Source of the DNA: Desulfovibrionaceae bacterium
GTDB lineage: Bacteria > Desulfobacterota > Desulfovibrionia > Desulfovibrionales > Desulfovibrionaceae
Length of the DNA: 64,000 nucleotides
NCBI GenBank assembly: GCA_031553655.1
Contig: JAVBLG010000032.1
Coordinates: 115-64,114 of the forward strand
Direction of reading: 5' to 3'
Shown: positions 19,969-49,696 of the stretch, in pieces
Numbering within the stretch: position 1 is the first letter of the stretch
Layout of the letters: every line of letters begins with the position of its first letter
Translations under genes and position numbers: made by a program
Notes under the pieces: generated by a model
What the model saw: the letters and a program-made list of their open reading frames with translations, nothing else
The model's database searches: none
What the model was told of the DNA's origin: nothing

Positions 19969-20003
19969 TTTCTTAATAAGAAATTTAATTTGCTAATAAG
20001 AAA
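19969..20003. promoter_or_regulatory. Two tandem palindromic operator candidates (autoregulation of the IclR-type gene)
   Basis: TTTCTTAaTAAGAAA (19969-19983, perfect 7-1-7 palindrome) and TTTGCTAaTAAGAAA (19989-20003). Centres are 20 bp apart. Confidence 0.5.
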
Positions 20004-20029
20004 TTACTCGTTTTGCCAAAGTATGTCAA
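20001..20029 (-). promoter_or_regulatory. Candidate sigma70 promoter of the IclR-type gene
   Basis: Minus strand reads TTGACA-N17-TAATTT. The -10 element overlaps the distal palindrome. Confidence 0.45.
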
Positions 20030-20054
20030 CAGCGATCCACTGCTGACACAGCAC

Positions 20055-20084
20055 GAAAAAAAGGCTCGCTTTTTCACGAGCCGG
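20055..20084 (-). terminator. Rho-independent terminator after flagellin gene
   Basis: Minus strand reads CCGGCTCGtgaaaaagCGAGCCttttttt. Confidence 0.75.
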
Positions 20085-20127
20085 AAAGAATGGTTTTTAT
20101 ACCGACAAAGAAGATAAGGAAATTTTA

Positions 20128-21603
20128 TCAGCCGCCGATAATTTGCATGGCCATTTTGGGTAGAGAGTTGGCTTGGGCCAGCATGGCCACAGCGGATTGA
20201 GTGAGAATTTGATTACGCGTGAATTCAGTCATTTCAGTAGCCACATCCACGTCGGAAATGCGCGATTCGGACATTTGCAGATTTTCAGCCTGGATATTAA
20301 GATTGCTGATGGTGTTTTCCAGGCGGTTTTGCAATGCGCCAAGATGGGCGCGAGTTTTGTCTTTTTTTACTATGGCACTGTCTATTCGTTCCAGCATGTT
20401 TTGCGCCAGATCCTGGGTAGCGACGTCGGGAACGTATATGGTTGTGCTTCCATCCACATCGATTCGCCTTTGTACACTTTGCGGCACGGGGTCTACCAGA
20501 GCTACGATTATCAAATTGTTAGAGGCAACGGGGTTTCCAGATGAATCAAGAGGAGCCGTGTTAAAATAAAGGGCGTTGCAGCTGCCGGTGTACTCGTATT
20601 TGATCGGAAACCCGGTCATACCACTGGATGGGATACTGAACGATGCTGACTGGTTGTAGGTTGCCCCAGAGAACAAACCGCTGCTGTTCATCCAGGACTG
20701 CAGATCTGTTGCATTATTAACGCCGAATTGTGCCCACAGGGAGTTCGCATTTCCTGGCGTAGTTCCTGCTATGTGGGTGCCGTCCGGGGCGAATACCTGG
20801 TATTGGATTATATTGGTGGTCGGGCGCTGGGTGGTCAAGGTTCCCAGGGCGGTGATGTCGCTATATATATGGTAGTTGGTGCCGTACGAGTTGGGAGGAG
20901 CAATATTCGTAATCACAGTAGGCCCGGTCATACCCAGGGCGCTGGCAATGGGGTTGTTGCTACCGAGATTGGAAAGCCATAAGTTATAATTTGTGGTGTT
21001 TATGGTTCGCCATTCATGTATCGGCTCGACGATGACTGCGTCGAACAGCCCAAGTCCCTTGGTGGTGGAATCGTCTATTTCAATGTAATAGTAGTCCTCG
21101 GCAGAGTCGTTACCTGTGCCGAAATGAATTTTGGCCGCCCCGGTGGAAGTTAGGCCCGAACCGTCATGAGTTCCCTGCAAATTGCCGTTTAGCAGATGAA
21201 TGCCGTTGAAGTCGGTTGAATTGGCTATACGGTCTATTTCCGCAGCCATGGCCAAAAATTCGCTGTTGATCATCAGACGCTGGGTGGAGTCATAGGTGCC
21301 GGTGGCGGCCTGCTCGGACAGTTCCTTCATGCGGATGAGTTTTTCATCGATGATTCCCAGCGCGCCGTCAGCGGTCTGAATGAGCGAAATGGCGTCGTTG
21401 GCATTACGCACGCCCTGCTGAAGAGTCTTAATGTCGGCCCGTTGAAGTTCGCGTATGGCCAGCCCGGCGGCGTCGTCGGAAGCGGAAAACACGCGCAGCC
21501 CGGAAGAGAGGCGGCGGGTGGAATCTGATAGAGAGGAATAATGGGTATTGAGATTGCGTGCCGCATTGGAGGCCATGAGGTTGTGATTGATCACCAGGGA
21601 CAT
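20128..21603 (-). CDS. fliC: Flagellin
   Basis: N-terminal MSLVINHNLMASNAARNL...LSSGLR and C-terminal LGALQNRLE...TQSAVAMLAQANSLP conserved domains around a variable central domain. AGGAGG SD before ATG 21603. Confidence 0.92.
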   Translation of the reverse strand: MSLVINHNLMASNAARNLNTHYSSLSDSTRRLSSGLRVFSASDDAAGLAIRELQRADIKTLQQGVRNANDAISLIQTADGALGIIDEKLIRMKELSEQAATGTYDSTQRLMINSEFLAMAAEIDRIANSTDFNGIHLLNGNLQGTHDGSGLTSTGAAKIHFGTGNDSAEDYYYIEIDDSTTKGLGLFDAVIVEPIHEWRTINTTNYNLWLSNLGSNNPIASALGMTGPTVITNIAPPNSYGTNYHIYSDITALGTLTTQRPTTNIIQYQVFAPDGTHIAGTTPGNANSLWAQFGVNNATDLQSWMNSSGLFSGATYNQSASFSIPSSGMTGFPIKYEYTGSCNALYFNTAPLDSSGNPVASNNLIIVALVDPVPQSVQRRIDVDGSTTIYVPDVATQDLAQNMLERIDSAIVKKDKTRAHLGALQNRLENTISNLNIQAENLQMSESRISDVDVATEMTEFTRNQILTQSAVAMLAQANSLPKMAMQIIGG

Positions 21604-21637
21604 TTTTGCCGCCTCCTGTATAGATTGTGCTTTACTG

Positions 21638-21653
21638 TGCAAGAGAGGGGCCA
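21638..21653 (-). promoter_or_regulatory. Candidate sigma54 promoter for flagellin
   Basis: Minus strand reads TGGCCCctctcTTGCA: correct GG-N10-GC spacing and one mismatch to TGGCAC. About 35 nt upstream of ATG 21603. Confidence 0.4.
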
Positions 21654-21827
21654 TGCGTAAAAATGTAGCTATAACAGCATATCAAATGAATTGTTTTTTA
21701 TTGCGCCTGCAAATATTGCCGCGTCGAGGCGCGGCAGCCCTATGATTTCCGAATAACGCTATCTTGTGCTTTGTCCTGAACGCGTCTAAACTACTGCCAA
21801 ATTTTTTTTGCCAAGGATGTTCCCCCA

Positions 21828-23129
21828 ATGCATTCCGTTCGATATATACATGCGGCCGACCTGCACCTCGACGCCGCCTTCAAGGGGCTTGCGCGCGAAG
21901 CCGCCCCGCATATGCCCGACATGGCCGCAAGGCTGCACTCGGCCACTTTCACCGCCCTGGAGCGCCTTTTCACCCTGTGCGAACGGGAGCGGGCGGATTT
22001 TCTGGTTATTGCCGGAGACATATATAATGCCGAGGATCACAGCCTGAAGGCTCAGCTGGCTCTGCGCGACGGCTGCAAGCGCCTTGCCGAACACGGCATC
22101 AGGGTCTTTCTGGCCCACGGCAACCACGATCCGCTGTCTTCGCGCCTGCTCACCCTGGATTGGCCCGAAAACGTGGTCATTTTCGGCGATCAGGCGGAAA
22201 GCCATGTGGTAATGCGAAATGATAAGCCCGTAGCCGTGGTGCACGGCATAAGCCATGCCACGGAAAGGGAAGGGCGCAACCTGGCCCGAAGTTTTCAACG
22301 ACTTTCCGGCACAGAAGAACTCAAGAATTGCTTTCAGCTGGGCGTATTGCATTGCACGTTGGAGAACGGCGACTCCAAAGCGGAAAGGTATGCGCCCTGC
22401 TCCGAGGATGACCTGATCGAAGCCGGGCTGGACGCCTGGGCTCTGGGGCATATTCACGACAAGCGCATAGTGCGCAAGACCGACCCCTTGATTCTTTACC
22501 CCGGCAACATCCAGGGTCTGCACATCAATGAAACCGGAGCGCGCGGTTGCACTCTGGTATCGGTCAGTTCCGTCAAAAACGGTTTTGCCTTCGATACCCA
22601 TTTCCACGCGCTGTCCCCGGTGCAGTGGGCCAAGGTGGAACCCAAAATGGCCGATTGCAGAACCATGGCCGCATTGGAAGCGGCCATGAGCGAAGCTCTG
22701 GAATTCGCGGCCCGGCAAACCGGCCCGGAATGCGGCACGCTTATTGCGAGAATAACTCTTTCCGGCCGTACATCCCTGAATGAGGAGCTTCGCCTGCCCG
22801 GAGTCACGGCTGATCTGGCCGAAAAACTGGGCGACCGCTCTTCAGGCCGCCCGGCGGTGCTGCTCAAGGACATCGTGCTGGAAACCAAACCATTGGCCGA
22901 TATGGAAAACATGCTCAAGCGCGACGATCTTCTGGGGGAAGTTCTGAGGCTGGCCGAGGATATAAGCCGGTCTTCCGATAAAATGAACACCCTCGCGCTT
23001 GAAGCCCTTGAGCCAATCCACAAGCATGCCAAACTGCGTAAAGCCCTGACCATGCCGGATGAAGCGGAAATGACGTCTTTGCTGGATGACGCCGGCCAAA
23101 TTTGCATTGACATCATGGAGGCCGAATAA
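21828..23129 (+). CDS. SbcD/Mre11-like metallophosphoesterase DNA-repair exonuclease (YhaO/SbcF-like)
   Basis: IHAADLHLD, GDIYN and AHGNHD calcineurin-like phosphoesterase motifs. The stop overlaps the start of the following ATPase (TAATG). Confidence 0.85.
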   Translation: MHSVRYIHAADLHLDAAFKGLAREAAPHMPDMAARLHSATFTALERLFTLCERERADFLVIAGDIYNAEDHSLKAQLALRDGCKRLAEHGIRVFLAHGNHDPLSSRLLTLDWPENVVIFGDQAESHVVMRNDKPVAVVHGISHATEREGRNLARSFQRLSGTEELKNCFQLGVLHCTLENGDSKAERYAPCSEDDLIEAGLDAWALGHIHDKRIVRKTDPLILYPGNIQGLHINETGARGCTLVSVSSVKNGFAFDTHFHALSPVQWAKVEPKMADCRTMAALEAAMSEALEFAARQTGPECGTLIARITLSGRTSLNEELRLPGVTADLAEKLGDRSSGRPAVLLKDIVLETKPLADMENMLKRDDLLGEVLRLAEDISRSSDKMNTLALEALEPIHKHAKLRKALTMPDEAEMTSLLDDAGQICIDIMEAE

Positions 23130-26100
23130 TGTATATATCTTCCTTCCACATCAACGGATTCGGCATATTCTCCGATGTGGGTCTGGAATCCATGCCGCCC
23201 GGCCTCTCTATTTTTCTGGGGCGCAACGAAGCGGGAAAATCCACCTGTCTGGATTTTTTCCGGGCCATGCTCACCGGCTATCCGGATCACCGCAGCAAGG
23301 AAGGACGCAATTTTTCCCACCCCCGCGCAGGGCAGGGCGGGGGAAGCATCGACATCAATGCCGGCTCTCTCGGCCGTCTCCGCCTCACCCGTCGACCCGG
23401 CAGCGGAGGCGGCTCGCTGAACCTTACTGACGCCTCGGGCGCTCCGCTGGATCTGGCCGTGCTGGACCGTCTGCTTTCCGGGGTGACCAGGGAAGTGTAT
23501 ACTAATGTGTTCGGTTTCAGCCTCTCAGAGCTGCAAAGCTTCAAAAGCCTCAATTCCGAAGGTGTGCGCCACGCCCTTTATGGGGCCAGTTTCGGCATGG
23601 GGCTGCGCCCTCCGGGACTGGTTTTCAAGCAACTTGACGATCGCATGGAGGCCCTGTTCAAACCCGGCGGCAACAGGCCTACTCTGAACGCCGCCGTGAA
23701 GGAATGGGAAGAGCTGCGCCGCCAGGTGCGGGCCGCCGAGGAAGAAAACCGCCTGTACGATACCAAAAAGCTCGAACTGGTTGAAAACGACCGCAAACTG
23801 GCCGAAACCAGGCAAAAGCGCGCGGAAACAGAACATGAACGCCGTCAGCTTGAAAAACGTCTGGGGGTATGGCGGCAATGGGATGAATGGCGTAAACTGG
23901 CTATTCGAATAGAGCGCCTGGAAAATGTTGTGGACACCTTCCCCGAGAACGGCCCGGCTCGCCTGGCCAGAGCAGTGGAAATACGCGAAGAGGCCGCTCG
24001 CAATGCCAGGGCGCGGCGCGAAATTCTGGAGCGCACTATAGATGCGGCCGAGGCCATGTCCGCGCAAATAGACGGCGAACTTCTGGCAAATCTGCCGGAA
24101 ATCCGCACGCTCAGCGAACGCAGGCTGATCTTCCGCAATGCTGAAGCAGCCATTCCCATCAAGCAGGCCGCCCGCGCCAGATCCGGGCAAGAACTGGAAC
24201 GGCTGCTCACCGGGCTGGGGCCGGACTGGTCGTGTGATCGCATCCGTGCCACCGATCGCTCGCTTTTTGCCCGCGAAGAACTGGAGCAGCAGGCTACCGA
24301 GCTGGGCGTGGCGGCTTCGTCCTATACCGCGGCCACCGACGCGCTGCAAAAAGCCAACCGCAACGTTGAAAGCTGCGAGCATGCCGTGCAGATAGCCAAG
24401 GCAAGAGCCGAGCATCTGCCCATGCCCGTGGCCGCTCTGGACGACGACGGCCGCGACTCGATGCGCCGTATTCTCGCCCGCATAGAAGAAAACAGGCAGC
24501 GTATTCCCGAGCGTACCCAGGCTCTTAACGCGGCCAAGGCTTCCTTTATGCGTTCCTATACTCCGTTGCGCTTGCGCAGCAATTCTCCCGCCGCCACCTT
24601 GGACCGTCTCAGCGAAGCTCAGGACAAGGCCATGGAATTGTCCGCCGAGGTGCAAAAATGTATCGCTCGCTCTGAAGATGCGGCCCGCGACGTAATGCTG
24701 GCGCAGCAGGCCGAAGACGCCTGCAAAATACGTATGGATCGCCTGCGTATTCAGCAAAAAACTAATCAGGGTCCCACCCGTTCCGCGCTGGACGCCAGGG
24801 CCTCGGCCCTGCGCAATATGCGTAACCTGGCCGCCGCCATGAACGTGGAGGTGGAAAGGCAAACCGATCTCAAATCGCGCCTTGACGGCATGTGGGCGCC
24901 CAAACCCATAAAAAGCCTTCCGCTGATGATTATTGGCGGCATTTTCGCGCTGGTCGGGGCAACGATTCTGTTTGCCTGCATGAAATTGGGTATGACCGCC
25001 TTTGTGCTTAACCCGGACATAACCGTTCCCGTCACCACCTGGTTGGGCTATCTGGCCATGCTGGCCGGTGTGGGTATTTTTCTCGGGGGTATGCCTCGTT
25101 CCGGGCCTGAAGCCGAACGTTTCAGAAAGGAATTTGAAGAGCTCAGCCTGCGCGCCAGTGACACGCAAAAACGCATTGACGATTTTCAGGAACAGCTTTC
25201 GGCACAATGTCTCGAAGCCGGTGTTGACAGCGCTGACCCCATAACAATGGAGGCCACGGAGCTTCTTCTGGAACGCGAGCGTGAAATGTGCGTCACCGAG
25301 GAACGCCTGGAACAGGAAATGATGTCCATGCAGGCCGATCTGACTTCGCTGCGCGAAAAGACCAAATATATGGAAACGGTGCGCATTGAGTCCGAAAACA
25401 GGGTGCAGCATGCCCGTCGTCGCTGGCATGAATTTCTGGTGGGTTGCGGAGTGGAAAGCATACCCGCTCCTGAAGCCGTAAGCGCTTTTTTTGCCAAGGT
25501 GGAATCAGCCAGAGGGGCCATGGGCGCGGTGAAGAATCTGGAAGCCGAAATAGTCGAGCTGGAAAAAATCATCAAGGAAAAGGCGCGCGAGGCCATGGGC
25601 ATTGCCCCGGTGGCCGAGCTTCTGCCGCCTGAAAGCGCCGAGCTCAACAACGTGCTCGACGCCGTGCGCAAGGTGTTGGAGGCCTGCCGCGATGCCGATG
25701 CCGCCGCCGAGGAGAGGGTGAAGGCCCAGGCCGAGGTGCGCAATGCCGAAATCAATGCCGAAAGGGCCGCCATGGCCCAGGGCGAAGCCATGGATTACAT
25801 TACCGCGGCCGAAAACCGTCTGGGATCGGCCCGCGAAGCCTGGCGCGAAAGCCTGCATTCCCTGGGGCTGGGCCTTGATCTGTCGCCCGGAACGGTGCGT
25901 GAAGCCTTTGAATGCATGGAAAGATGTCTGGCCACGGAAGCCGAGGAAGCCCGCTTCGGCGAAGAACTGGGCCGTCTGGCCGAAGACCTCGGCACGATAA
26001 TAAACCCGTTGCGCGCCCTTTTGGAACGCCTGAAGCGCGAAGTGGGCCGGGATTCACTGTCCGGTGATTCCGATTGGCTGGGCAGCCTTAACACTCTTTA

Positions 26101-27103
26101 CAACGAAGCCTCACAAGCGGAAAAAAACTCCGGAGAACTGGCCCGGCTCAATGAAACCGCTCAGGCTCAGGAAGACGAATGCAAGGCCGCTGAAGCTTTT
26201 CTGACCGACGCCCTTAAAAACGAGCGTGAGCTTCTTATTTTGGGCGGCGCGGAAAATGCCGAGGAATTCCTGCGTCTGGCCGCCGTGCGCGATGAACGCA
26301 AGGAAATAACCCGCCGCCGCGAAGACTTGGAAGATGCCCTGCGCCTGGCTGACGACAGCCAGTCTTTCGACGACTTTATCAAGTCTTTTGATAATTTTGA
26401 CCGGGAAGAAGGCGAAGCCCGCAATGTGCGCATAGCTGAGGAATTGAGCGCCCTGGCTGACGAGGAACGCCGTCTGGCGGGCGAAATAGCGTCATTGGAA
26501 GCGGTATTGAGCAATCTTACGGGCACGGATCATTTTTCACACCTGCGCCAGCAGGAGGCCTCGCTTTTGGAGTCCATACGGCGCATGGCCCGCGAATGGA
26601 GTCGCCTGGCCATTTCCAGGCATCTTCTGACCGAAGCTAAAAGCCGTTTTGAACGCGAGCGCCAGCCTGAAGTAATCCGCGCCGCTTCGGAAATATTCTC
26701 CGACATAACCGCTGGAACCTGGACCTCCATTTCCGCCTCGCTCGAAGACAGCTCGCTTTCGGTAATGCGGCCTTCAGGTGAGGCCGTTTCGCCCGACACT
26801 ATGAGCCGGGGGGCCCAGGAACAGCTTTATCTTTCACTGCGCCTGGCCTATATACGCAACCATGCCGCGCATGCCGCTCCGTTGCCGGTGATCATGGACG
26901 ATATTCTGGTCAACTTCGACCCGGAAAGAGCCAGAAGAACCGCCGCCGCCCTTGCCCCGTTGATTCGCGGCGAAGATGGCAATTACCCGCCCCATCAGGT
27001 GCTGTTTTTTACCTGTCACCCACATATGGCGGAAATGCTTAAAGATACTATCAATGGCAGCGCGGTATTCATGGTGGAGAAGGGCACGATCACCTCTTGC
27101 TGA
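23129..27103 (+). CDS. Rad50/SbcC-like AAA ATPase (YhaN/SbcE-like), 1324 aa, with long coiled coils and a central two-helix membrane hairpin
   Basis: N-terminal Walker A GRNEAGKST. C-terminal SRGAQEQLYLSLRLA signature and PVIMDDILVNFD Walker B. Heptad-rich arms. Hydrophobic segments are encoded at 24914-25093. Confidence 0.85.
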   Translation: MYISSFHINGFGIFSDVGLESMPPGLSIFLGRNEAGKSTCLDFFRAMLTGYPDHRSKEGRNFSHPRAGQGGGSIDINAGSLGRLRLTRRPGSGGGSLNLTDASGAPLDLAVLDRLLSGVTREVYTNVFGFSLSELQSFKSLNSEGVRHALYGASFGMGLRPPGLVFKQLDDRMEALFKPGGNRPTLNAAVKEWEELRRQVRAAEEENRLYDTKKLELVENDRKLAETRQKRAETEHERRQLEKRLGVWRQWDEWRKLAIRIERLENVVDTFPENGPARLARAVEIREEAARNARARREILERTIDAAEAMSAQIDGELLANLPEIRTLSERRLIFRNAEAAIPIKQAARARSGQELERLLTGLGPDWSCDRIRATDRSLFAREELEQQATELGVAASSYTAATDALQKANRNVESCEHAVQIAKARAEHLPMPVAALDDDGRDSMRRILARIEENRQRIPERTQALNAAKASFMRSYTPLRLRSNSPAATLDRLSEAQDKAMELSAEVQKCIARSEDAARDVMLAQQAEDACKIRMDRLRIQQKTNQGPTRSALDARASALRNMRNLAAAMNVEVERQTDLKSRLDGMWAPKPIKSLPLMIIGGIFALVGATILFACMKLGMTAFVLNPDITVPVTTWLGYLAMLAGVGIFLGGMPRSGPEAERFRKEFEELSLRASDTQKRIDDFQEQLSAQCLEAGVDSADPITMEATELLLEREREMCVTEERLEQEMMSMQADLTSLREKTKYMETVRIESENRVQHARRRWHEFLVGCGVESIPAPEAVSAFFAKVESARGAMGAVKNLEAEIVELEKIIKEKAREAMGIAPVAELLPPESAELNNVLDAVRKVLEACRDADAAAEERVKAQAEVRNAEINAERAAMAQGEAMDYITAAENRLGSAREAWRESLHSLGLGLDLSPGTVREAFECMERCLATEAEEARFGEELGRLAEDLGTIINPLRALLERLKREVGRDSLSGDSDWLGSLNTLYNEASQAEKNSGELARLNETAQAQEDECKAAEAFLTDALKNERELLILGGAENAEEFLRLAAVRDERKEITRRREDLEDALRLADDSQSFDDFIKSFDNFDREEGEARNVRIAEELSALADEERRLAGEIASLEAVLSNLTGTDHFSHLRQQEASLLESIRRMAREWSRLAISRHLLTEAKSRFERERQPEVIRAASEIFSDITAGTWTSISASLEDSSLSVMRPSGEAVSPDTMSRGAQEQLYLSLRLAYIRNHAAHAAPLPVIMDDILVNFDPERARRTAAALAPLIRGEDGNYPPHQVLFFTCHPHMAEMLKDTINGSAVFMVEKGTITSC

Positions 27104-27140
27104 ATTCCCAATACGTATTGTGTTCAATTGGTTGCGCCAA

Positions 27141-27205
27141 GCGGGCTTTTTGCTTAAGTCGAGTACCGAAAAAAGTACACTCCTTTCGCAAAAAGCCCGT
27201 TTTCT
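27141..27205 (+). terminator. Compound hairpin terminator after the SbcC-like gene
   Basis: CGGGCTTTTTGC (27142-27153) pairs with GCAAAAAGCCCG (27188-27199). There is an inner GTAC-cgaaaaaa-GTAC hairpin, then TTTTC. Confidence 0.55.
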
Positions 27206-27572
27206 TGCCTTTTGTCCAAAATACGCTTCTTAAGAAACGCATTTGTGTAACCGCACGAAGTGGCCGGGCCGGTCGCAAAGTATCCCGTTTTTAATGATAC
27301 TTTTCGATTAATTTATGTGCCGCGTATCTCGGTTATATCATTTGCTAGCGGCGCTCGTTCAAAAATAACTTGATAAATCATTGCATTAGCATTATACTGC
27401 ATAAGTATAAATAATTTTACTGTGTTACAGCTTGCTCTGTTTTTTGATTATCGCTAAGAGCCGCTATACGTCTATCGTCTAGATCTGTTTCGCAATCTTA
27501 AGAGCAACTATCACGAGGTGTGGCAACTATGTGCTTTGACATTTGATACTTATTCAACATGAGGAGTGAATT

Positions 27573-29717
27573 ATGATTTGGTACCGCAATTTGCGCATGA
27601 CTTCTAAAATAGTGCTTCCTGTTGGTTTGATGCTTATTGTAGCTCTGGGTTTTCTGGCTTGGCAGATTAGGGAAAAAAGTTCCTATGCGATAGAACATGT
27701 GGCGCAGAGAGAATTGGCATATCTGGCCGGGCAGTACGGAAACGAAATCAAATCAGTCTTTGAAGTGGCGCTGGACGGAGCCCAGGCTTTTGCGGACGCG
27801 ATGGTGGTTCCACTGGAAAATAACGACCCCATCACCAGAGAGCGATTCATAATGATGATGGAAGGCGTACAAAAAAGCCGTCCCGAATTTCTAGCCGCCG
27901 GAACAGCCTGGGAACCCAATGCCTACGACGGTAAAGACACCGAAAATGCCGGCAAGCCCGGTTCAGACAAAAACGGCCGTTTCATCCCCTATAGCGCAAC
28001 CGGCTTTCCCCTTACCACCCTTCAGGATCTGGAATCCAGCGAATATTATTCCGAACCCAAAAGGCGCGGCAGAAGCTATTTGAGCAAACCTTATATTTAC
28101 GACGTGGGCGGCGGCAAGAAAATTTTAATGACCACGGCCAGCGCTGTTGTAAAAGTCAAAGGTAAATTCAGCGGTATTGTTCTGATTGATATCTCCCCCG
28201 AAGTAGCCGCAAAGACGGTGAGTTCTCTCCATATTTACCAATCGGGCTGGGGCGCGGTGCTTACCCAGGACGGCACCATAGCGGTGGCCAGAGATGATGC
28301 CAGCTTTGGCAAAAGCATATTTTCCACCGGAGTCACCCAAAAGCAGGATGCCTTGCGTCGAGCCATGAATGCGGGCGAACCTTTTGTGGAGCGCGGCAAC
28401 TACCAGGGCAAGGATTCTTTTTTCTATTATTATCCCATACCCTTCCCCCTGACCGGCCAGAACTGGTATTTTATGGTCAGCGCGCCCATTGACGAGGTGT
28501 TGGCCGAGGTTGCCAACATAAGCCGAGTGACCCTTATTTTCAGCGCCGCTGTTCTGGTTTTGTCCATTCTGGTCATTTTTGTGGTGGTGCGCGCCTGTGC
28601 GAAGCCCATGGGCATTTTGGCCGAAACAGCCAAGGACATAGCCGGGGGCAACCTGCATGCTCCTGTGCATGACGAAAACTTTAGCGGCGAAGTGCTTGAA
28701 TTGAGCACCGCCTTGAAAAATATGATTGCCTCGCTGATTGAAAATATTGAAAAGGCCGAAGCCATGAGCGCCGATGCCCAAGCCCAGACCGCCAAAGCCG
28801 AAGTGGCCATGCGCGAGGCTGAACAGGCCCGGCTGACGGCCGAACGGGCCAAGCGCGACGGCATGCTTGCTGCCGCGAATCAGCTTGAGGGCGTGGTGAA
28901 CATTATTTCCACCGCTTCCGAAGAGCTTTCGGCTCAAATTGAGCAATCGGAACGCGGCTCGTCTGAACAGGCCAACCGCTTGGGCGAGGCGGCAACGGCT
29001 ATGAGCGAAATGAACAGCACAGTAATGGAAGTTGCTCGTAATGCTTCGCAAGCATCGCAAATTTCGGTACAAACCAGGGCCAAGGCCGAAGACGGAGCCA
29101 AGGTAGTGCAATCCGCCGTTACCGGCATACAAAACGTGCAGACTGTCTCGCTTGCGCTTAAGGCCGACATGACAAAACTATCCGAGCAGGCTCAGGGCAT
29201 TTCCCAGATTATGGGTGTTATTTCCGACATAGCCGATCAGACCAATCTTCTCGCCCTTAACGCCGCCATTGAAGCGGCGCGGGCGGGTGACGCCGGGCGC
29301 GGCTTTGCCGTGGTGGCCGATGAGGTGCGCAAGCTGGCCGAAAAAACCATGACTTCCACAGTTGATGTGGGCAATGCCATAAAATCCATACAGGAAAGCG
29401 TTAATCAGAGCATCAAGCAGGTGGATCTGGCCGTAAGCCTCATAGATACGGCAACGGATCAATCCAACAGATCCGGAGAATCACTCAGCGAAATAGTCAC
29501 CATGGTGGACAGCACCGCCGACCAGGTGCGGGGCATAGCCACGGCCAGCGAGCAGCAATCTTCCACCAGCGAAGAGATAAACCGTTCCATAGAGCATATC
29601 AACAGCATAGCTTCGCAAACAGCTGAAGCCATGCATCAGGCGGCCAGGGCCGTGAGCGATCTTGCCGCACAGGCCCAGGCGCTGAGTACGTTGATTGAGG
29701 ATATGAAGAGAGGTTAG
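27573..29717 (+). CDS. Methyl-accepting chemotaxis protein (periplasmic dCache-like sensor, HAMP, MA domain)
   Basis: GAGGAG SD. Two TM segments flank a domain of about 290 aa. Highly conserved signalling hairpin ADQTNLLALNAAIEAARAGDAGRGFAVVADEVRKLAE. Confidence 0.92.
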   Translation: MIWYRNLRMTSKIVLPVGLMLIVALGFLAWQIREKSSYAIEHVAQRELAYLAGQYGNEIKSVFEVALDGAQAFADAMVVPLENNDPITRERFIMMMEGVQKSRPEFLAAGTAWEPNAYDGKDTENAGKPGSDKNGRFIPYSATGFPLTTLQDLESSEYYSEPKRRGRSYLSKPYIYDVGGGKKILMTTASAVVKVKGKFSGIVLIDISPEVAAKTVSSLHIYQSGWGAVLTQDGTIAVARDDASFGKSIFSTGVTQKQDALRRAMNAGEPFVERGNYQGKDSFFYYYPIPFPLTGQNWYFMVSAPIDEVLAEVANISRVTLIFSAAVLVLSILVIFVVVRACAKPMGILAETAKDIAGGNLHAPVHDENFSGEVLELSTALKNMIASLIENIEKAEAMSADAQAQTAKAEVAMREAEQARLTAERAKRDGMLAAANQLEGVVNIISTASEELSAQIEQSERGSSEQANRLGEAATAMSEMNSTVMEVARNASQASQISVQTRAKAEDGAKVVQSAVTGIQNVQTVSLALKADMTKLSEQAQGISQIMGVISDIADQTNLLALNAAIEAARAGDAGRGFAVVADEVRKLAEKTMTSTVDVGNAIKSIQESVNQSIKQVDLAVSLIDTATDQSNRSGESLSEIVTMVDSTADQVRGIATASEQQSSTSEEINRSIEHINSIASQTAEAMHQAARAVSDLAAQAQALSTLIEDMKRG

Positions 29718-43778: not shown

Positions 43779-44708
43779 ATGGCCGCCGGAAAATATGTTC
43801 CTTCGACGAATATCACCATGCCGGTGTTCAATAGGCATGATCAGACATTAAAAACCATTTTCGCCTTACGACGCAATACGGGGGCCAAAATAATCCTCAC
43901 AGTTGTAGACAACGGCAGTAAAGAAGCTTTGAGGAATGAGCTTATACGGCTGCATAAAGAAAAGGTTATTGATAATCTGTTCATTTTGGAAAAAAATTAC
44001 GGTATTTCCTGCGCATGCAATGTCGGCTGGCAGCTTGTTGACGCGTCATTTTTTATGAAACTTGACAATGACATGCTCGTGCTGTCGGGCACATGGCTGG
44101 AAGACGTGTTCTCCATGTGGGGCCGTTATAAATATTCTACTGTATTCGGGCCGGTATGGAACTCGGATGCCACGAACCTCAAGGTGGACACCCCCTGCGG
44201 AACAATGTGGATGATGCCCGCATCTTTGAGTGGCGCGGCCTTTTTGGTCAGCAAGAAAGTTAATGAACAAATTGGATATTTCAGCGAAGATTACGGACTA
44301 TACGGAGAGGAAGACGCCGATTACTGCATGCGTTGTCTACACGCGGGAATCAGGAAATACACCTTTGAAGCGTCAAAAATGTTTGCGGACGCGGGCGGGA
44401 ACGATGATTACAAAAGCATAAATTTTTCCAAGGTGGACATGCATAACAGGAATGTGGGCTTTGGCCGGGGCGAAGGAATTTTCGCCTTGAACCTGTTTTT
44501 GTACAAGCATGGCCTGCGGGATCTGAAAGTGCGCCGCAGGTATGTGATCGACTCCGTGGACGGAAATCATGTGAAGATTTCGGAAGATCAGGACTATTTG
44601 AAATACCTTGACGCTCTGTCCGAATGCTGTGATTTGTTCAATGCCTGCGGCAGAGAGCCGGATAGTGAGCTTACGGAAAAAATAAAAAAAATTCTTATTG
44701 CAGCATAG
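43779..44708 (+). CDS. Family 2 glycosyltransferase (low-GC)
   Basis: PVFNR...VVDNGS..., KLDNDM, EDADYCMRC motifs of GT-A/GT2 enzymes. Visibly AT-richer than prmA. Confidence 0.8.
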   Translation: MAAGKYVPSTNITMPVFNRHDQTLKTIFALRRNTGAKIILTVVDNGSKEALRNELIRLHKEKVIDNLFILEKNYGISCACNVGWQLVDASFFMKLDNDMLVLSGTWLEDVFSMWGRYKYSTVFGPVWNSDATNLKVDTPCGTMWMMPASLSGAAFLVSKKVNEQIGYFSEDYGLYGEEDADYCMRCLHAGIRKYTFEASKMFADAGGNDDYKSINFSKVDMHNRNVGFGRGEGIFALNLFLYKHGLRDLKVRRRYVIDSVDGNHVKISEDQDYLKYLDALSECCDLFNACGREPDSELTEKIKKILIAA

Positions 44709-44737
44709 AGACTTTTGAGAATGGAAGTATCTGTATT

Positions 44738-45517
44738 TTATTTAAAATGATGGTTCTCCCTAAGCTCTGGTAATTCATCGGCCAAGCAAAGCAAATAAGT
44801 GGTGTAGAAAGATGGAAGTGCTCCAGATTTATCAGGATAAAGGTACGTGTCGCGTAGTTCTAATAATTTTTCTTCATCATCTACAGCTTCTTTAAGATCA
44901 TCGGAAAGTTGTTTCCATATTGCCAAGCGGCGTTGTGCCAGCCTCGGAGTGTTTAGGCCCAAAATTTTTATAGTGTTTTCTACTACAGCACAATCTATCC
45001 CAGCGCGTTTGCAGGCTGCAATATCAGGCGCAAATAAAAGTCCAGATGAGGTCTCTACTTGGGTAAATAATGGATAATCCGGCAAAGTGTAAGGATTGAG
45101 GATATTTCCTTCAGGATCGTGCTTGTCCTTCTTTTGCCCGCATGAAAGCTCCACTTCTTGATATATTTTTTTGTGATTTTTGTCGTAATTCGGTTTTGAG
45201 CCTCCAAGACAATTTAGAAGAAAATTATCAAAAGTGCATGTGTAATCATGTGTTGGTGTACTTGCATTTTTAGGAATAAAATTCTCTATCTGCCTGCCGT
45301 GCTCTTGAAGACTCGCTTCACAATAAGCGCAAACTCCATTATGGCTTATAAGCAAGTTGGAAATTATTTCCTTATAAGCATCCTGGTATTCATTTTTGAA
45401 TGCTTCCCATCTCGCGGTTTCCGTACGTGCGGGAGACGCCGGAGGATAATTTTTTTGAAATAATGCCACAATAGCAGAAAAATTTTTTGGTTCGTCAGCG
45501 GGTTTAATCTTGTGCAT
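44738..45517 (-). CDS. HNH-fold (TIGR02646/PtuB-like) protein with a non-canonical active-site motif
   Basis: CAYCE ... RQIENFIPK ... FDNFLLNC ... SCGQKKDK ... TIKILGLNTPRL. The family pattern is recognised from memory. Asn stands where the family His is expected. Overlaps the upstream ATPase gene by 14 nt. Confidence 0.55.
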   Translation of the reverse strand: MHKIKPADEPKNFSAIVALFQKNYPPASPARTETARWEAFKNEYQDAYKEIISNLLISHNGVCAYCEASLQEHGRQIENFIPKNASTPTHDYTCTFDNFLLNCLGGSKPNYDKNHKKIYQEVELSCGQKKDKHDPEGNILNPYTLPDYPLFTQVETSSGLLFAPDIAACKRAGIDCAVVENTIKILGLNTPRLAQRRLAIWKQLSDDLKEAVDDEEKLLELRDTYLYPDKSGALPSFYTTYLLCLADELPELRENHHFK

Positions 45518-46805
45518 TTGAATCTTCCCGTTCCTTTTTTCTTTTCATACGCAGCAACAGCATATCGGCTCTGTCAAGAACAGGATCATCCCGCATCCAT
45601 ACATTCAATTTTTCGCGTAATTTTTCGGCTTCTTCAAACCCCCCATTTCTTAATAGACTGAAATAATTTTCAAGTGTTTTTGTGGCATCATTGTGCGGGC
45701 GCGGTAATACTTCCTGAAGAAATTGCAATACTCTGGAATTTTCTGCTCCAAAGGTTGACACATTGGTGCAATACGCTTTTCCATCTTTTAATATGCGTAT
45801 ATATTCAGGTTCTATAGAGGTAAGAGTTTGCGGGCTATGGGTGGTTACTATGAATTGAATGTTGGGGAAAATATTCATCAACGTTGGCAACACAGTCTGT
45901 TGCCAGGAAGGGTGCAAATGTAATTCAATTTCATCAATCAGCACTGTACCCGGAGAATGAAGCACGGATTCCCCTTTTAGCCAGGTGACCTTGTCGTTCG
46001 CCACCGCCATGCGGCGAGCCAAGTCCATAACCAGGGCCAGCATGGTGCGATAACCGTCGCTGAGTTGGGTTAGTGAATACATTTCGCCCGTATCTTTTTT
46101 GCAAACAAAAAATTCGGGTGGAGTTTTATCTATCTGCGGATCCTGGTATTCTTCATTGAGGGCTTTGAGCACGGCCTCGCGCACTGCTTTGAGTTCCGCT
46201 ATTTCATAATCGAAATTTTTGATCTTTTTGGCATGTAGAGCTTCTTCTGTGGATTTGTTTACAAACCAGTTCATAGTGGACTGGAAATCTATGGCCGGAG
46301 AAAAGGCGTCTGTATAGGCACTTGCTTTGTTTATGCTACCTGAATTGGAATTTTTAGTTTCAGGTAGAATGCGTTTTGCGGAATAATAAGTGAATACCGG
46401 CATGGCTTTGTCTAATTTGCCATGCTCCGCATAGGTATCCCAAAATGTGTTTAAGGGTCTAATATATTGTGCTAAATCTACTTTTAATAATGAGCTGATT
46501 CTATCCTCATTGAATAGCGCCTCAATGGCTGGAACTTCAGCTCCGTCAGCGCCTTTGAGTTTTACTGAATAGTAAAAACTATCAAAACCTATGGAAGGAT
46601 TAGAAATATATATATTTTCCATAATACGGATTTCATTGTCGCGAAAACTGTTGGCGAATGCCTTCAGTATAATAGCCAAGGCGTCAAGAACCGCGCTTTT
46701 GCCCGCGCCATTCACGCCTACCAGCACGGTGAGCTTTGGATCAAAGTCTATTTGCAAGTCGCTGAAGCATCGGAAATTTTTTACATGCAAAGACTCAATA
46801 GTCAT
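45504..46805 (-). CDS. ABC/SMC-type AAA ATPase (AAA_15/AAA_21, COG3950-like; PtuA-like)
   Basis: MTIESLHVKNFRCF..., Walker A GVNGAGKS, signature-like LSDGYR, Walker B VLIDEIELHLHP, H-loop VTTHSP. GGAGGG SD favours ATG 46805 over 46817. Confidence 0.72.
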   Translation of the reverse strand: MTIESLHVKNFRCFSDLQIDFDPKLTVLVGVNGAGKSAVLDALAIILKAFANSFRDNEIRIMENIYISNPSIGFDSFYYSVKLKGADGAEVPAIEALFNEDRISSLLKVDLAQYIRPLNTFWDTYAEHGKLDKAMPVFTYYSAKRILPETKNSNSGSINKASAYTDAFSPAIDFQSTMNWFVNKSTEEALHAKKIKNFDYEIAELKAVREAVLKALNEEYQDPQIDKTPPEFFVCKKDTGEMYSLTQLSDGYRTMLALVMDLARRMAVANDKVTWLKGESVLHSPGTVLIDEIELHLHPSWQQTVLPTLMNIFPNIQFIVTTHSPQTLTSIEPEYIRILKDGKAYCTNVSTFGAENSRVLQFLQEVLPRPHNDATKTLENYFSLLRNGGFEEAEKLREKLNVWMRDDPVLDRADMLLLRMKRKKEREDSNAQD

Positions 46806-46847
46806 TTTACCCTCCATTGCGCGCCTTGCGTATTTGCAATCTTGCCG

Positions 46848-48311
46848 CTACCTGCGCCAGAACGCCGGTACGAAAATGATCATGATGGTGTAAATTTCCA
46901 GCCGCCCCATGAGCATGGCCAGGCTTAGCAGCCATTTGCCGCCGTCGGGCAGGTGCCCGAAGTTTTCCACCGGTCCCAGGCTGGCAAAGGCCGCGCCCAC
47001 ATTGGCCAGGCAGGCGGCCGAGGCCCAGAAGGCGGCTTCCACTTCCGCGCCCATGGCGGCCAGAGCCACAGTGGAAGCGGCGATCAGCAGCACAAAGATC
47101 ACAAAAAAGCTGATTACCGCATTAAGTACCTCGGGGGGTACGGCCTTGCCGTCGATTTTGATCACGTTTATCGAGCGCGGGTGCAGCAAATGCAGCACTT
47201 CTTGCCAGGCCACCCTGGCCAGCAAAATTATGCGCAATATTTTCAGCCCGCCGCTGGTGGAGCCAACGCAGCCGCCCACAAAGTAGAAAGACATCAGCAC
47301 AGCCCGCCCGGCAGAAGGCCAGGTTTCGTAGTCGGTGGAGGAAAAGCCCGTTGTGGTCACTATGCAGGTTATCTGGAAAAAGGCGTGGCGCACGGTTTCA
47401 GCCACGGTGGCATATTGTTTGTTGTGCAGCAGAATCCAGGTGAGCAGGGCGGCCCCGAACAGCAGAATGGCGCTGTAGATTTTGAATTCGCTGTTGCTTT
47501 TGTAGGCGGCGCGGTCGCCGGATAAAAAACGGTTGTGCAGGGCGAAGCTGGCCCCGGAAACATACATGAAAATTACCACCACCCATTGAATATAGGCATC
47601 GTCGAAAGATGCCAGGGAATTGTTGCGGGTGGAAAAACCGGCTGTGGAAATAGTGGTGAAGGTATGGGTTACGGCTTCAAAGAGCGACATGCCGCCAAGA
47701 AGCAGCAATATCAACAGCGCGGCGGACAACATCAGATAAATGCGCCACAGCACCGCGGCGGTGTCGCGCAGGCGTGGGGTGAGCTTGTTTTTGGACGGAC
47801 CGGGTATTTCGGCCTTGAAAAGCTGCATACCGCCCACGCCCAGAGTGGGCAGAATGGACAGATACAGAATGATGATGCCGATTCCGCCCAGCCATTGGGT
47901 GAAGCTGCGCCACATGAGCAGCCCGCCGGGCATGGCTTGAATGTCGGGTATTACCGAAGCCCCGGTGGTGGTAAAGCCCGAGGTCGATTCAAAAACAGCG
48001 TCGGCCAGAGACAGCCAGCCCCCGATAATATAGGGCAAGGCCCCGCCCAGGCTCATGCAAATCCAGCACAGGGCCACAGTGAGCATGCCCTCGCGGTTGC
48101 TGAGGCCGTCTTCGGGGTCGGGCGGCTTGAAGAAAAAACGCAGCAGCGCGCCAATGCCCACCATAATAGCCATGGATATGCCCAGCGCCTTGTCCGAGCC
48201 GTCGTCATACCAGAGTGCGGTTAGCATGGGCAGCATCATGGCCAGCCCCACCGCAAGAGTTAGCACGCCAAGAATGTGCAGAATGCCTGCGGGCCTTATG
48301 ACTTTGCTCAT
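46848..48311 (-). CDS. trkH: Trk-type potassium uptake protein TrkH
   Basis: Multi-pass membrane protein with repeated M1-P-M2 segments (SGFTTTGAS, TAGFST, TTGFSS, GGLK). Confidence 0.9.
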   Translation of the reverse strand: MSKVIRPAGILHILGVLTLAVGLAMMLPMLTALWYDDGSDKALGISMAIMVGIGALLRFFFKPPDPEDGLSNREGMLTVALCWICMSLGGALPYIIGGWLSLADAVFESTSGFTTTGASVIPDIQAMPGGLLMWRSFTQWLGGIGIIILYLSILPTLGVGGMQLFKAEIPGPSKNKLTPRLRDTAAVLWRIYLMLSAALLILLLLGGMSLFEAVTHTFTTISTAGFSTRNNSLASFDDAYIQWVVVIFMYVSGASFALHNRFLSGDRAAYKSNSEFKIYSAILLFGAALLTWILLHNKQYATVAETVRHAFFQITCIVTTTGFSSTDYETWPSAGRAVLMSFYFVGGCVGSTSGGLKILRIILLARVAWQEVLHLLHPRSINVIKIDGKAVPPEVLNAVISFFVIFVLLIAASTVALAAMGAEVEAAFWASAACLANVGAAFASLGPVENFGHLPDGGKWLLSLAMLMGRLEIYTIMIIFVPAFWRR

Positions 48312-49696
48312 TCCCGTTCCGCCAGGCGTTTTTCGATTTCGCTCATGACCTCGCGGGTGCAGACCATTATGATGTGGTCGCCAGCGTCAAGCTCGCTGTT
48401 GCCGTTGGGAATAAACACACCCTTGTTGCGCATCACGGCCACCAGCAATGCGCCGCGCGGAAGTTTAAGATCGCGTACCGGCCTGCCGGTTAAGGTGGAA
48501 TTTTCCGCCAGCACCGCTTCGAGCACTTCGGCGGCCTCGTCGCCCACGGAAACTGAAGTGAGCATGCGGCCTTGTCGTACTACGTTGACCAGGGTATTCA
48601 CGGCCGATTGGCGCGGGCTCACCCCGTGGTCGATACCTATATTTTCCACCAATGAGAGATAGCCGGGCTTGTTCACCCTGGCCACTGTGGTGGCCACGCC
48701 CATAGACTTGCCCAGCAGGCAGGCCATGATGTTGGTTTCCTCGTCGCCGGTGGCCGCCACCAGTACGTCCATATCTTTGATGTTTTCTTCGATGAACAGG
48801 CTTTTGTCCGTGCCGTCGCCGTGCAGCACTAGCGTGCTGTCGAGCACCGAGGCCAGGTGCGCGCAGCGTTCGGCGTCGGAATCCACCAACTTGAGATCCA
48901 CGCCCTTGTTTTCATAGAGTTTGGCCAGCTGCAGGCCTATGGTGCCCCCGCCGATTATGCATATGGTGCTGAAAAAAGCCCGGTTGCGGCCCAAAGTGCG
49001 CAGCAGCCGCCGCTGGCTGTGCTCATTGTAAATGAAGTAGGCCGTGTCTCCGGGCAGCAGGCTTTCGCGGCCCGAAGGCACAATGACCTGATCCTTGCGG
49101 GCTATGGCCGCCACCATAATGCTGTCGCCGCCCACCAGTTCGCGAAAGCGGGAAAGGGGTTCGCCGGCCAGCGGCCCACTTTCTATGCGGTAAGCAGCCA
49201 TGCGGATGTGCCCGCCGGCAAATTCGGCATATTCCACGGCTCCGGGCATGGACAGCAGGCGGTCTATGGTGCGCACCACTTCCTTTTCCGGGCTGACCAT
49301 AATGTTGATGCGCAAGCCTGAGCCGAGCAGTTCGGGATAATTAGCGAATTCTTCATCACGTAGCCGGGCCAGGATGACGGCCTCTTTGGGCGCTATGGCA
49401 TTGGCGAAAAGGCAGGCGATGATATTTACTTCGTCGCTGCTGGTCACGGCGAAAAAAAACGAAGCTTCAGCCGTGCCCGCTTCTTTCAGCACCGAAGGGC
49501 TGGACCCCGAACCGAGCACGGTCTGAACGTCAATAGCGTCGGAAATGCGCTTGAGCCGTTCCGATTCAAGGTCTATTACCGTGACATCCTTATCTTCCTG
49601 GGTAAGGCGGCGAGCAATGTGAAAGCCGACTTCGCCGCCGCCGACGATAATTATTTTTTTGCGCTCAAATTTTGTTTTATTGCCGAAGATGAACAC
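48308..49696 (-). CDS. trkA: Trk system NAD-binding protein TrkA (two RCK tandem units)
   Basis: IIIVGGGEVG and ICIIGGGTIG Rossmann motifs with two RCK_C regions. ATGA overlap with the trkH start. Confidence 0.9.
   Translation of the reverse strand: MFIFGNKTKFERKKIIIVGGGEVGFHIARRLTQEDKDVTVIDLESERLKRISDAIDVQTVLGSGSSPSVLKEAGTAEASFFFAVTSSDEVNIIACLFANAIAPKEAVILARLRDEEFANYPELLGSGLRINIMVSPEKEVVRTIDRLLSMPGAVEYAEFAGGHIRMAAYRIESGPLAGEPLSRFRELVGGDSIMVAAIARKDQVIVPSGRESLLPGDTAYFIYNEHSQRRLLRTLGRNRAFFSTICIIGGGTIGLQLAKLYENKGVDLKLVDSDAERCAHLASVLDSTLVLHGDGTDKSLFIEENIKDMDVLVAATGDEETNIMACLLGKSMGVATTVARVNKPGYLSLVENIGIDHGVSPRQSAVNTLVNVVRQGRMLTSVSVGDEAAEVLEAVLAENSTLTGRPVRDLKLPRGALLVAVMRNKGVFIPNGNSELDAGDHIIMVCTREVMSEIEKRLAERE

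Follow-up and report, generated by a model that had tools for sequence, protein, structure and literature searches.

The DNA examined here is a stretch of 64,000 nt from a Desulfovibrionaceae bacterium (positions 115 to 64,114 of contig JAVBLG010000032.1, assembly GCA_031553655.1), referred to below in its whole length as the window. At 44738–46817 its minus strand carries two overlapping genes for homologues of PtuA and PtuB, the ATPase and the HNH nuclease of the defence system Septu. In this PtuB, asparagine (Asn79) stands at the position of the catalytic general-base histidine, while most other characteristic features of both proteins are preserved. The module is probably a disarmed Septu copy, and below this possibility is weighed against the alternatives of a remodelled nuclease, a non-catalytic role and an error in the data.

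Gene pair and assignment to type I Septu

The ptuB open reading frame (ORF) occupies 44738–45517 (−) and encodes 259 aa, comprising a TIGR02646-type HNH (His-Me finger) domain, a Cys4 zinc finger and a helical C-terminal domain. The ORF of ptuA, which codes for an ABC/SMC-like ATPase of the stand-alone (type I) Septu kind, extends in its longest form over 45504–46817 (−; 437 aa). The gene probably starts at the second ATG, at 46805, and not at 46817, giving a protein of 433 aa (45504–46805, −), because a Shine-Dalgarno-like GGAGG (46811–46815, −) lies 5 nt upstream of this ATG, within the first four codons of the 437-aa ORF, the 433-aa form is present in NCBI (P0002), and the family hidden Markov models (HMMs) begin there. 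The two genes share 14 nt (45504–45517, −), a segment that includes the ptuA stop codon TAA (45506–45504) and the ptuB start codon ATG (45517–45515). Both ORFs and their overlap are as described in the original prediction, which was made from the DNA letters and a list of ORFs. All motifs quoted in it are also present, namely GVNGAGKS, LSDGYR, VLIDEIELHLHP and TTHSP in the first protein, and CAYCE, IENFIPK, FDNFLLNC and ILGLN..RL..RR in the second.

Assignment of the pair is based on several lines of comparison. The PADLOC models PtuA1 (E = 3e-98, matched end to end) and PtuB1 (PDLC00349, E = 1e-50) both recognize their respective proteins. Pfam families AAA_15, AAA_21 and AAA_23 are found in PtuA, and no family is matched in a Pfam search of PtuB, which passes the cut-off of the NCBIfam model TIGR02646 (“retron system putative HNH endonuclease”; 55.2 bits vs 52.15). 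Among chains in the PDB, PtuA matches PtuAs of Ec78, Ec83 and stand-alone Septu with E-values from 1e-36 to 1e-41. The single PtuB sequence detects Ec83 PtuB (9e8z_E, E = 1e-11; 5e-45 with a profile), and a profile of 60 sequences also reaches Septu PtuB 8ee7_C (6e-25) and Ec78 PtuB (1e-14). An AlphaFold2 model of PtuB (predicted local distance difference test 94.4, predicted template modelling score 0.90) gives Ec83 PtuB as the best Foldseek hit (template modelling score, TM, 0.73), with Cas9 HNH domains and the Gme HNH nickase as the next hits. Strands 75–79 and 99–103 and helix 126–130, delimited in this model by DSSP, make up the beta-beta-alpha-Me core.

The order of genes is conserved as well. 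In an HMM screen, PtuA lies directly upstream of PtuB on the same strand in 61 of the 62 metagenomic loci that have a PtuB relative and enough upstream DNA. The closest PtuA relative (48% identity) resides in a Desulfosarcina genome in an equivalent two-gene layout without a reverse transcriptase (RT), and the closest PtuB, located by an exhaustive HMMER search of representatives, is 45% identical. A word-indexed protein search with PtuB returned only PtuB itself. No RT or non-coding RNA (ncRNA) adjoins the pair, as the gaps on its two sides (~40 nt to the trkH stop and a convergent GT2 gene downstream) are too small. Rfam detects in the window only a tRNA 40 kb away, nothing near the locus, and no second PtuA or PtuB is present within the window. 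Furthermore, the alignment of PtuA begins at residue 1 in stand-alone 8ee4_A, and only at residues 63–68 in retron PtuAs, where an additional insert of ~40 aa is also found. Scores with the Ec78-specific NCBIfam equivalogs remain below cut-off for both proteins (NF041760, PtuA, 265.3 vs 500 bits; NF041761, PtuB, 70.9 vs 150).

As judged by homology, the locus is a stand-alone two-gene type I Septu homologue. The original prediction had proposed a Septu/PtuAB-like pair composed of an AAA_15/AAA_21-class ATPase and a TIGR02646-type HNH partner, without an adjacent RT or retron ncRNA. These proposals agree with the profile, structure and gene-order data given above.

The closest metagenomic PtuAB homologue was observed in locus L011 (102–8672), where PtuB is 39% identical and has the canonical QIEHFIPK. 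This pair is placed between an ORF of 1180 aa, SNF2-type-helicase-like when inspected by eye, and an ORF of 961 aa, also judged by eye. These surroundings are reminiscent of a defence island and differ from the housekeeping neighbourhood of the pair in the window.

Active site of PtuB

To describe conservation in PtuB, the best 150 of 447 HMMER matches at E ≤ 1e-3 were aligned with MAFFT. The codon AAT at 45283–45281 (−) specifies Asn79, where relatives have the catalytic general-base His (H57 in Ec78). Column 79 is occupied by His in 145 of the 147 sequences that have a residue there; Asn appears in the query only, and Leu in one N-terminally truncated fragment (P0142). An independent metagenomic sample was obtained by a scan with an alignment of 16 sequences, using a pattern that required Gln at column 59, so that its counts are unbiased for column 79 only; here, His was found in all 69 unique homologues. 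The same residue is present in every solved PtuB. About 210 relatives in all were surveyed at this column. The 15 closest relatives, without exception, read Q-I-E-H-F/I/V-x-P-K, as is also the case for the PtuB that accompanies the closest PtuA.

The equivalence of this position is indicated in three ways. Asn79 aligns with Ec78 H57, and counting residues in this alignment returns C43, C46 and H57 as published. In Ec83, the matching residue is the one changed from His to Ala between chains 9e8z_E and 9o4a_C (“Ec83 PtuAB mutant complex”). In the model, Asn79 is the last residue of strand 75–79, where the His-Me general base sits. A His in shifted register (E72-H73) was considered and ruled out, because H73 falls in a turn that varies among homologues, and it is N79 that precedes the conserved F-x-P-K block. 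The reading E-N-F-I-P-K in place of E-H-F-x-P-K, pointed out in the original prediction, is therefore real.

Across the His-Me superfamily, the general-base His at the C-terminal end of beta-1 is nearly invariant (PMC5714182). In Ec78 PtuB, the H57A mutation eliminates tRNA-Tyr cleavage as well as defence and toxicity (PMC12673091, PMC12819146), and plasmid nicking is lost in both E56A and H57A (PMC13376987). Defence is likewise abolished by H71A, an HNH active-site mutant whose residue number does not suit Ec83 and which is probably from another type I-A retron, perhaps that of PDB 9N69 (PMC12475279).

A second substitution, not remarked in the original prediction, is located four residues before the first zinc Cys. 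There, the codon CAT (45341–45343, −) introduces His59 instead of a near-invariant Gln, which is present in 144 of 145 representatives and in PtuBs of Ec83, Ec78 and stand-alone Septu (8ee7), with His in the query only. At a threshold of ≥ 90%, 21 columns of PtuB are conserved, and the query differs from the consensus in two of them only, Q59 and H79. In terms of nucleotides, the Asn79 codon is one transversion from CAT, and the His59 codon one nucleotide from CAA/CAG.

The zinc-finger span (45140–45331, −), delimited by invariant columns and DSSP, includes C63, C66, C103 and C126 together with E67, E78, N98 and 22 inserted residues that separate beta-2 from the Me-helix. In the family, the order is C63-x2-C66, then C103, the insert, and C126-x3-K130; all four Cys are invariant, and all are present in the query. 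The corresponding zinc ligands of Ec78 PtuB are C43, C46, C78 and C90 (PMC12673091). The original prediction considered the replacement of a C-x-x-C-N-x-x-K block by NCLGGSK and, further on, SCGQKKDK as an anomaly. This does not hold, since the split Cys4 is a family-wide feature, also seen in Ec83 and Ec78. Kept in the query are also E78, the acidic residue preceding the base position, and N98, the structural Asn of the HNH omega-loop, which by alignment corresponds to Ec78 N73 (PMC12804668).

A milder, third difference in the likely active-site region was observed at residue 123 (45149–45151, −), three residues before the last zinc Cys. The query has Glu at this column, a residue shared by 6 of 150 homologues, with Asn in 59% and Asp in 16 of them. 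Where Asn occupies this column, it may be the metal-binding residue that caps the N-terminus of the Me-helix.

The partner protein shows no comparable change. Walker A of PtuA (GVNGAGKS, 46695–46718, −) has G, N, G, G and K in the columns that are invariant in the PtuA alignment, and in the Walker B/D-loop segment (VLIDEIELHLHP, 45909–45944, −) the D-E pair corresponds to D395/E396 of Ec78 PtuA, where D395A and E396Q abolish function (PMC12673091, PMC12819146). The signature motif and the H-loop are intact, as are the two Walker motifs. An alignment of 118 homologues has 63 columns conserved at ≥ 95%, and the query deviates in none of these.

In a weak alignment to Ec78 PtuA, Ser appears at about residue 142 of PtuA (433-aa numbering; ~46380–46382, −), where Ec78 has the Asn of Y-N-V-E-R. 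The residue possibly belongs to the Q-loop, at a site for which Gly is reported in hydrolysis-inactive type I Septu PtuA (PMC12804668).

With stand-alone type I Septu of E. coli (PDB 8EE4/8EE7/8EEA), the locus shares the two-gene order of ATPase and HNH without RT, a PtuA of ~430–465 aa lacking the N-terminal extension, and, in the profile match to 8ee7_C (E = 6e-25), aligned Q...C and I-E-H blocks. It departs from this system in having Asn for the catalytic His and His for the conserved Gln. In addition, the Cys4 is complete here, whereas 8ee7_C reads LCCYSE at the first knuckle; identity is low, and phmmer with the single PtuB sequence fails to reach 8ee7. Retron Ec83 PtuB (9E8Z, 9E90, 9O4A) is the closest solved PtuB both by sequence and by fold, and has in common with the query the layout C-L-G-G, insert, S-C-x-x-x-K (S-C-D-x-x-K in Ec83) and the LNxxRL motif near the C-terminus. 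However, Ec83, a type I-A retron or “type II Septu”, possesses an RT and an ncRNA/msDNA that are missing here. Its PtuA is 542 aa long and has an N-terminal extension and an insertion (type I-A retron PtuAs are ~540–550 aa with a coiled-coil insertion), compared to 433 aa in the window, and its PtuB reads E-H-F, or E-A-F in the engineered 9o4a, where N79 is found here. Retron Ec78/Eco7 PtuAB resembles the locus in zinc-finger topology, in positions of the H57/N73 dyad and in an identical Walker B block LIDEIELHLHP; the differences are the retron, absent here, and the Asn at the H57 equivalent. Beta-beta-alpha-Me folds without the general-base His are otherwise known from PacI, Smad MH1 and ENPP nuclease-like domains (PMC5714182). 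Those are, however, whole families in which the change is fixed, and the substitute residue has been identified in PacI, while here the change concerns one sequence in an otherwise His-bearing family.

Genomic surroundings

The pair lies, together with a GT2 gene, in a low-GC patch (43779–46817) between prmA and trkH. GC content (the fraction of G and C) is 0.36–0.46 across ~43.8–46.8 kb and 0.55–0.61 on either side, changing abruptly at the trkH stop, so that the low-GC module noted in the original prediction is confirmed. Values for ptuA and ptuB are 0.40–0.42, in a window that has 55% GC as a whole. GC at third codon positions (GC3) is 0.33 in ptuB and 0.42 in ptuA, against 0.60–0.74 in the flanking prmA, trkH, trkA, murJ and RNase R genes.

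As judged from GC and GC3, the Septu pair is probably horizontally acquired. In a scan of genome contigs, TrkH was at most 43% identical to that of any GTDB species representative, and the source lineage is poorly sampled. Flanking repeats or att sites were searched for around the locus, and only short matches at chance level were obtained.

The trkH stop is ~40 nt upstream of ptuA, and the convergent GT2 gene ends 29 nt past the ptuB stop. Promoter and terminator scans at the locus revealed no site above shuffled expectation, and the Septu genes may thus be read through from the trk operon. The trkA and trkH genes of this operon (46848–49696, −) overlap each other by 4 nt.

The GT2 gene (43779–44708, +; Pfam PF00535, E = 5e-9) has a GC content of 0.46 and shares part of the low-GC patch. 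It starts 2 nt after the prmA stop and is convergent with ptuB. Its acquisition may have been joint with that of the Septu pair, or separate.

Further dips in GC were detected elsewhere in the window, at 27001–28000 and 20001–21000 (0.45 and 0.49). They coincide with the 5′ end and upstream region of a methyl-accepting chemotaxis protein gene (27573–29717) in one case and with a flagellin gene (20128–21654) in the other. In addition, a 1324-aa AAA_27/AAA_23 ATPase (23129–27103, +) abuts a 433-aa ORF (21828–23129, +), and the two resemble a nuclease-ATPase pair of the YhaO/YhaN or SbcCD kind. The N-terminus of this ATPase gives a weak match to the PtuA HMM that is limited to the Walker A region common to both.

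Functional state of the module

In Septu, PtuA oligomers hold PtuB via C-terminal domains, and the PtuAB complex is the toxic and defensive unit, acting by nicking or degradation of DNA and, in several systems, leading to tRNA-Tyr cleavage (PMC12819146, PMC12673091, PMC13376987, PMC13096335). By extension from characterized Septu and retron I-A systems, PtuA of the window would oligomerize and clamp PtuB via the C-terminal helical domains of both proteins. In those characterized systems, the complex is an HNH nuclease activated by phage, with DNA (nicked or degraded), tRNA-Tyr or both as its targets. PtuB retains its fold, the Cys4 zinc finger, E78, N98 and the predicted PtuA-binding C-terminal domain, while the general-base His is absent. 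In other words, the features predicted to be needed for PtuAB assembly and ATP binding are intact. The pair belongs by homology to type I Septu, and what it lacks is the general-base His required in common by all characterized PtuBs.

Since this base is missing and equivalent His-to-Ala mutants are null, it is reasonably probable that nuclease chemistry has been abolished or strongly attenuated, and that the module is a disarmed Septu copy. As a possible route, a fixed lesion would have relieved PtuAB self-toxicity, with the change of Q59 occurring afterwards or alongside. No relative shares N79, so the change looks like an active-site lesion of one lineage and not like a new subtype. The suggestion made in the original prediction, of a Septu-like variant outside the canonical description, is in this respect overstated, and the locus is a singleton, probably a degenerate member of a well-known system.

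Several observations weigh against a disarmed copy. All 63 conserved columns of PtuA are matched, without any sign of decay; in PtuB, Q59 and H79 are the only deviations at 21 conserved columns, and neither ORF is interrupted. In an inactive system, wider erosion would be expected, except where the lesion is young. The best-matching PtuB has 45% identity, and there is no close relative by which to date the change. Published PtuB mutants at this His are His-to-Ala substitutions, whereas the locus has His-to-Asn. Finally, two changes in two of the most conserved non-Cys residues could mean that the site is remodelled and still active. According to this explanation, the general base would have moved to His59, or to His90 or Tyr92 of the omega-loop, with N79 only positioning water or metal, and the Septu would be functional. 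Q59H and H79N are the only deviations in 84 conserved columns of PtuA and PtuB taken together, and each is absent from all the other ~140 full-length homologues; two unique changes of this kind, in two near-invariant residues of one domain, point to linked changes rather than to random drift. The remaining functional features are all intact, the query has E78 and E123 as putative metal ligands, and PacI, in which a loop Tyr takes the place of His, provides a precedent (PMC5714182). Nevertheless, the arrangement occurs in no other family member and has no evolutionary replication, and H90 and Y92 are not specific to this PtuB. Moreover, P0142, with Leu at column 79, is not the sequence that departs from Gln at column 59, which gives no indication of coupling between the two positions. 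A remodelled, active nuclease is the main rival explanation, regarded as unlikely. Still somewhat less likely is its narrower form, in which Q59H and H79N represent a natural relocation of the catalytic base, to His59 or a nearby residue in a PacI-like manner, within a functional Septu of possibly altered substrate or metal preference.

Conservation of the fold, of the zinc finger, of the C-terminal PtuA-binding domain and of the whole PtuA would also fit a non-catalytic PtuB kept for another role, in which the complex binds nucleic acid without cleaving it and functions in sequestration, in sensing or regulation, or as a decoy. His-Me domains that have lost the His and still bind DNA are documented (PMC5714182). 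However, the sequence is a singleton without a family, and nothing shows selection for a new role. The window also offers no partner gene as an effector and no second PtuA or PtuB, the neighbours being housekeeping genes or GT2. We hold this explanation to be improbable. The two substitutions could, alternatively, stem from a sequencing or consensus error or from a minor population variant, the real PtuB having Gln59 and His79 in a canonical Septu. A single nucleotide separates each of the two codons from the consensus, and the data apparently come from one sample or assembly, the protein cluster consisting of one member on one contig. Against this, there are two separate substitutions 60 nt apart and no frameshifts. 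The Logan assembly of SRR23967709, built independently, is 100% identical over 1663 nt, indicating that N79 and H59 are not an assembly slip. An artefact of this type is thus very improbable.

Either way, the locus is a single sequence, which limits its general significance. If the site is remodelled, it would be the second example, after PacI, of a His-Me nuclease without the canonical His, and positions 59 and 79 would make a ready pair for probing PtuB catalysis. If the lesion is inactivating, as favoured here, the locus would be a clean natural case of a toxic defence module disarmed at a catalytic residue, with the other machinery left intact. PADLOC PtuA1/PtuB1 HMMs score the pair as Septu without flagging the missing His, and an inactivating lesion would therefore bear on the share of “predicted” defence systems in genome surveys that are truly functional.

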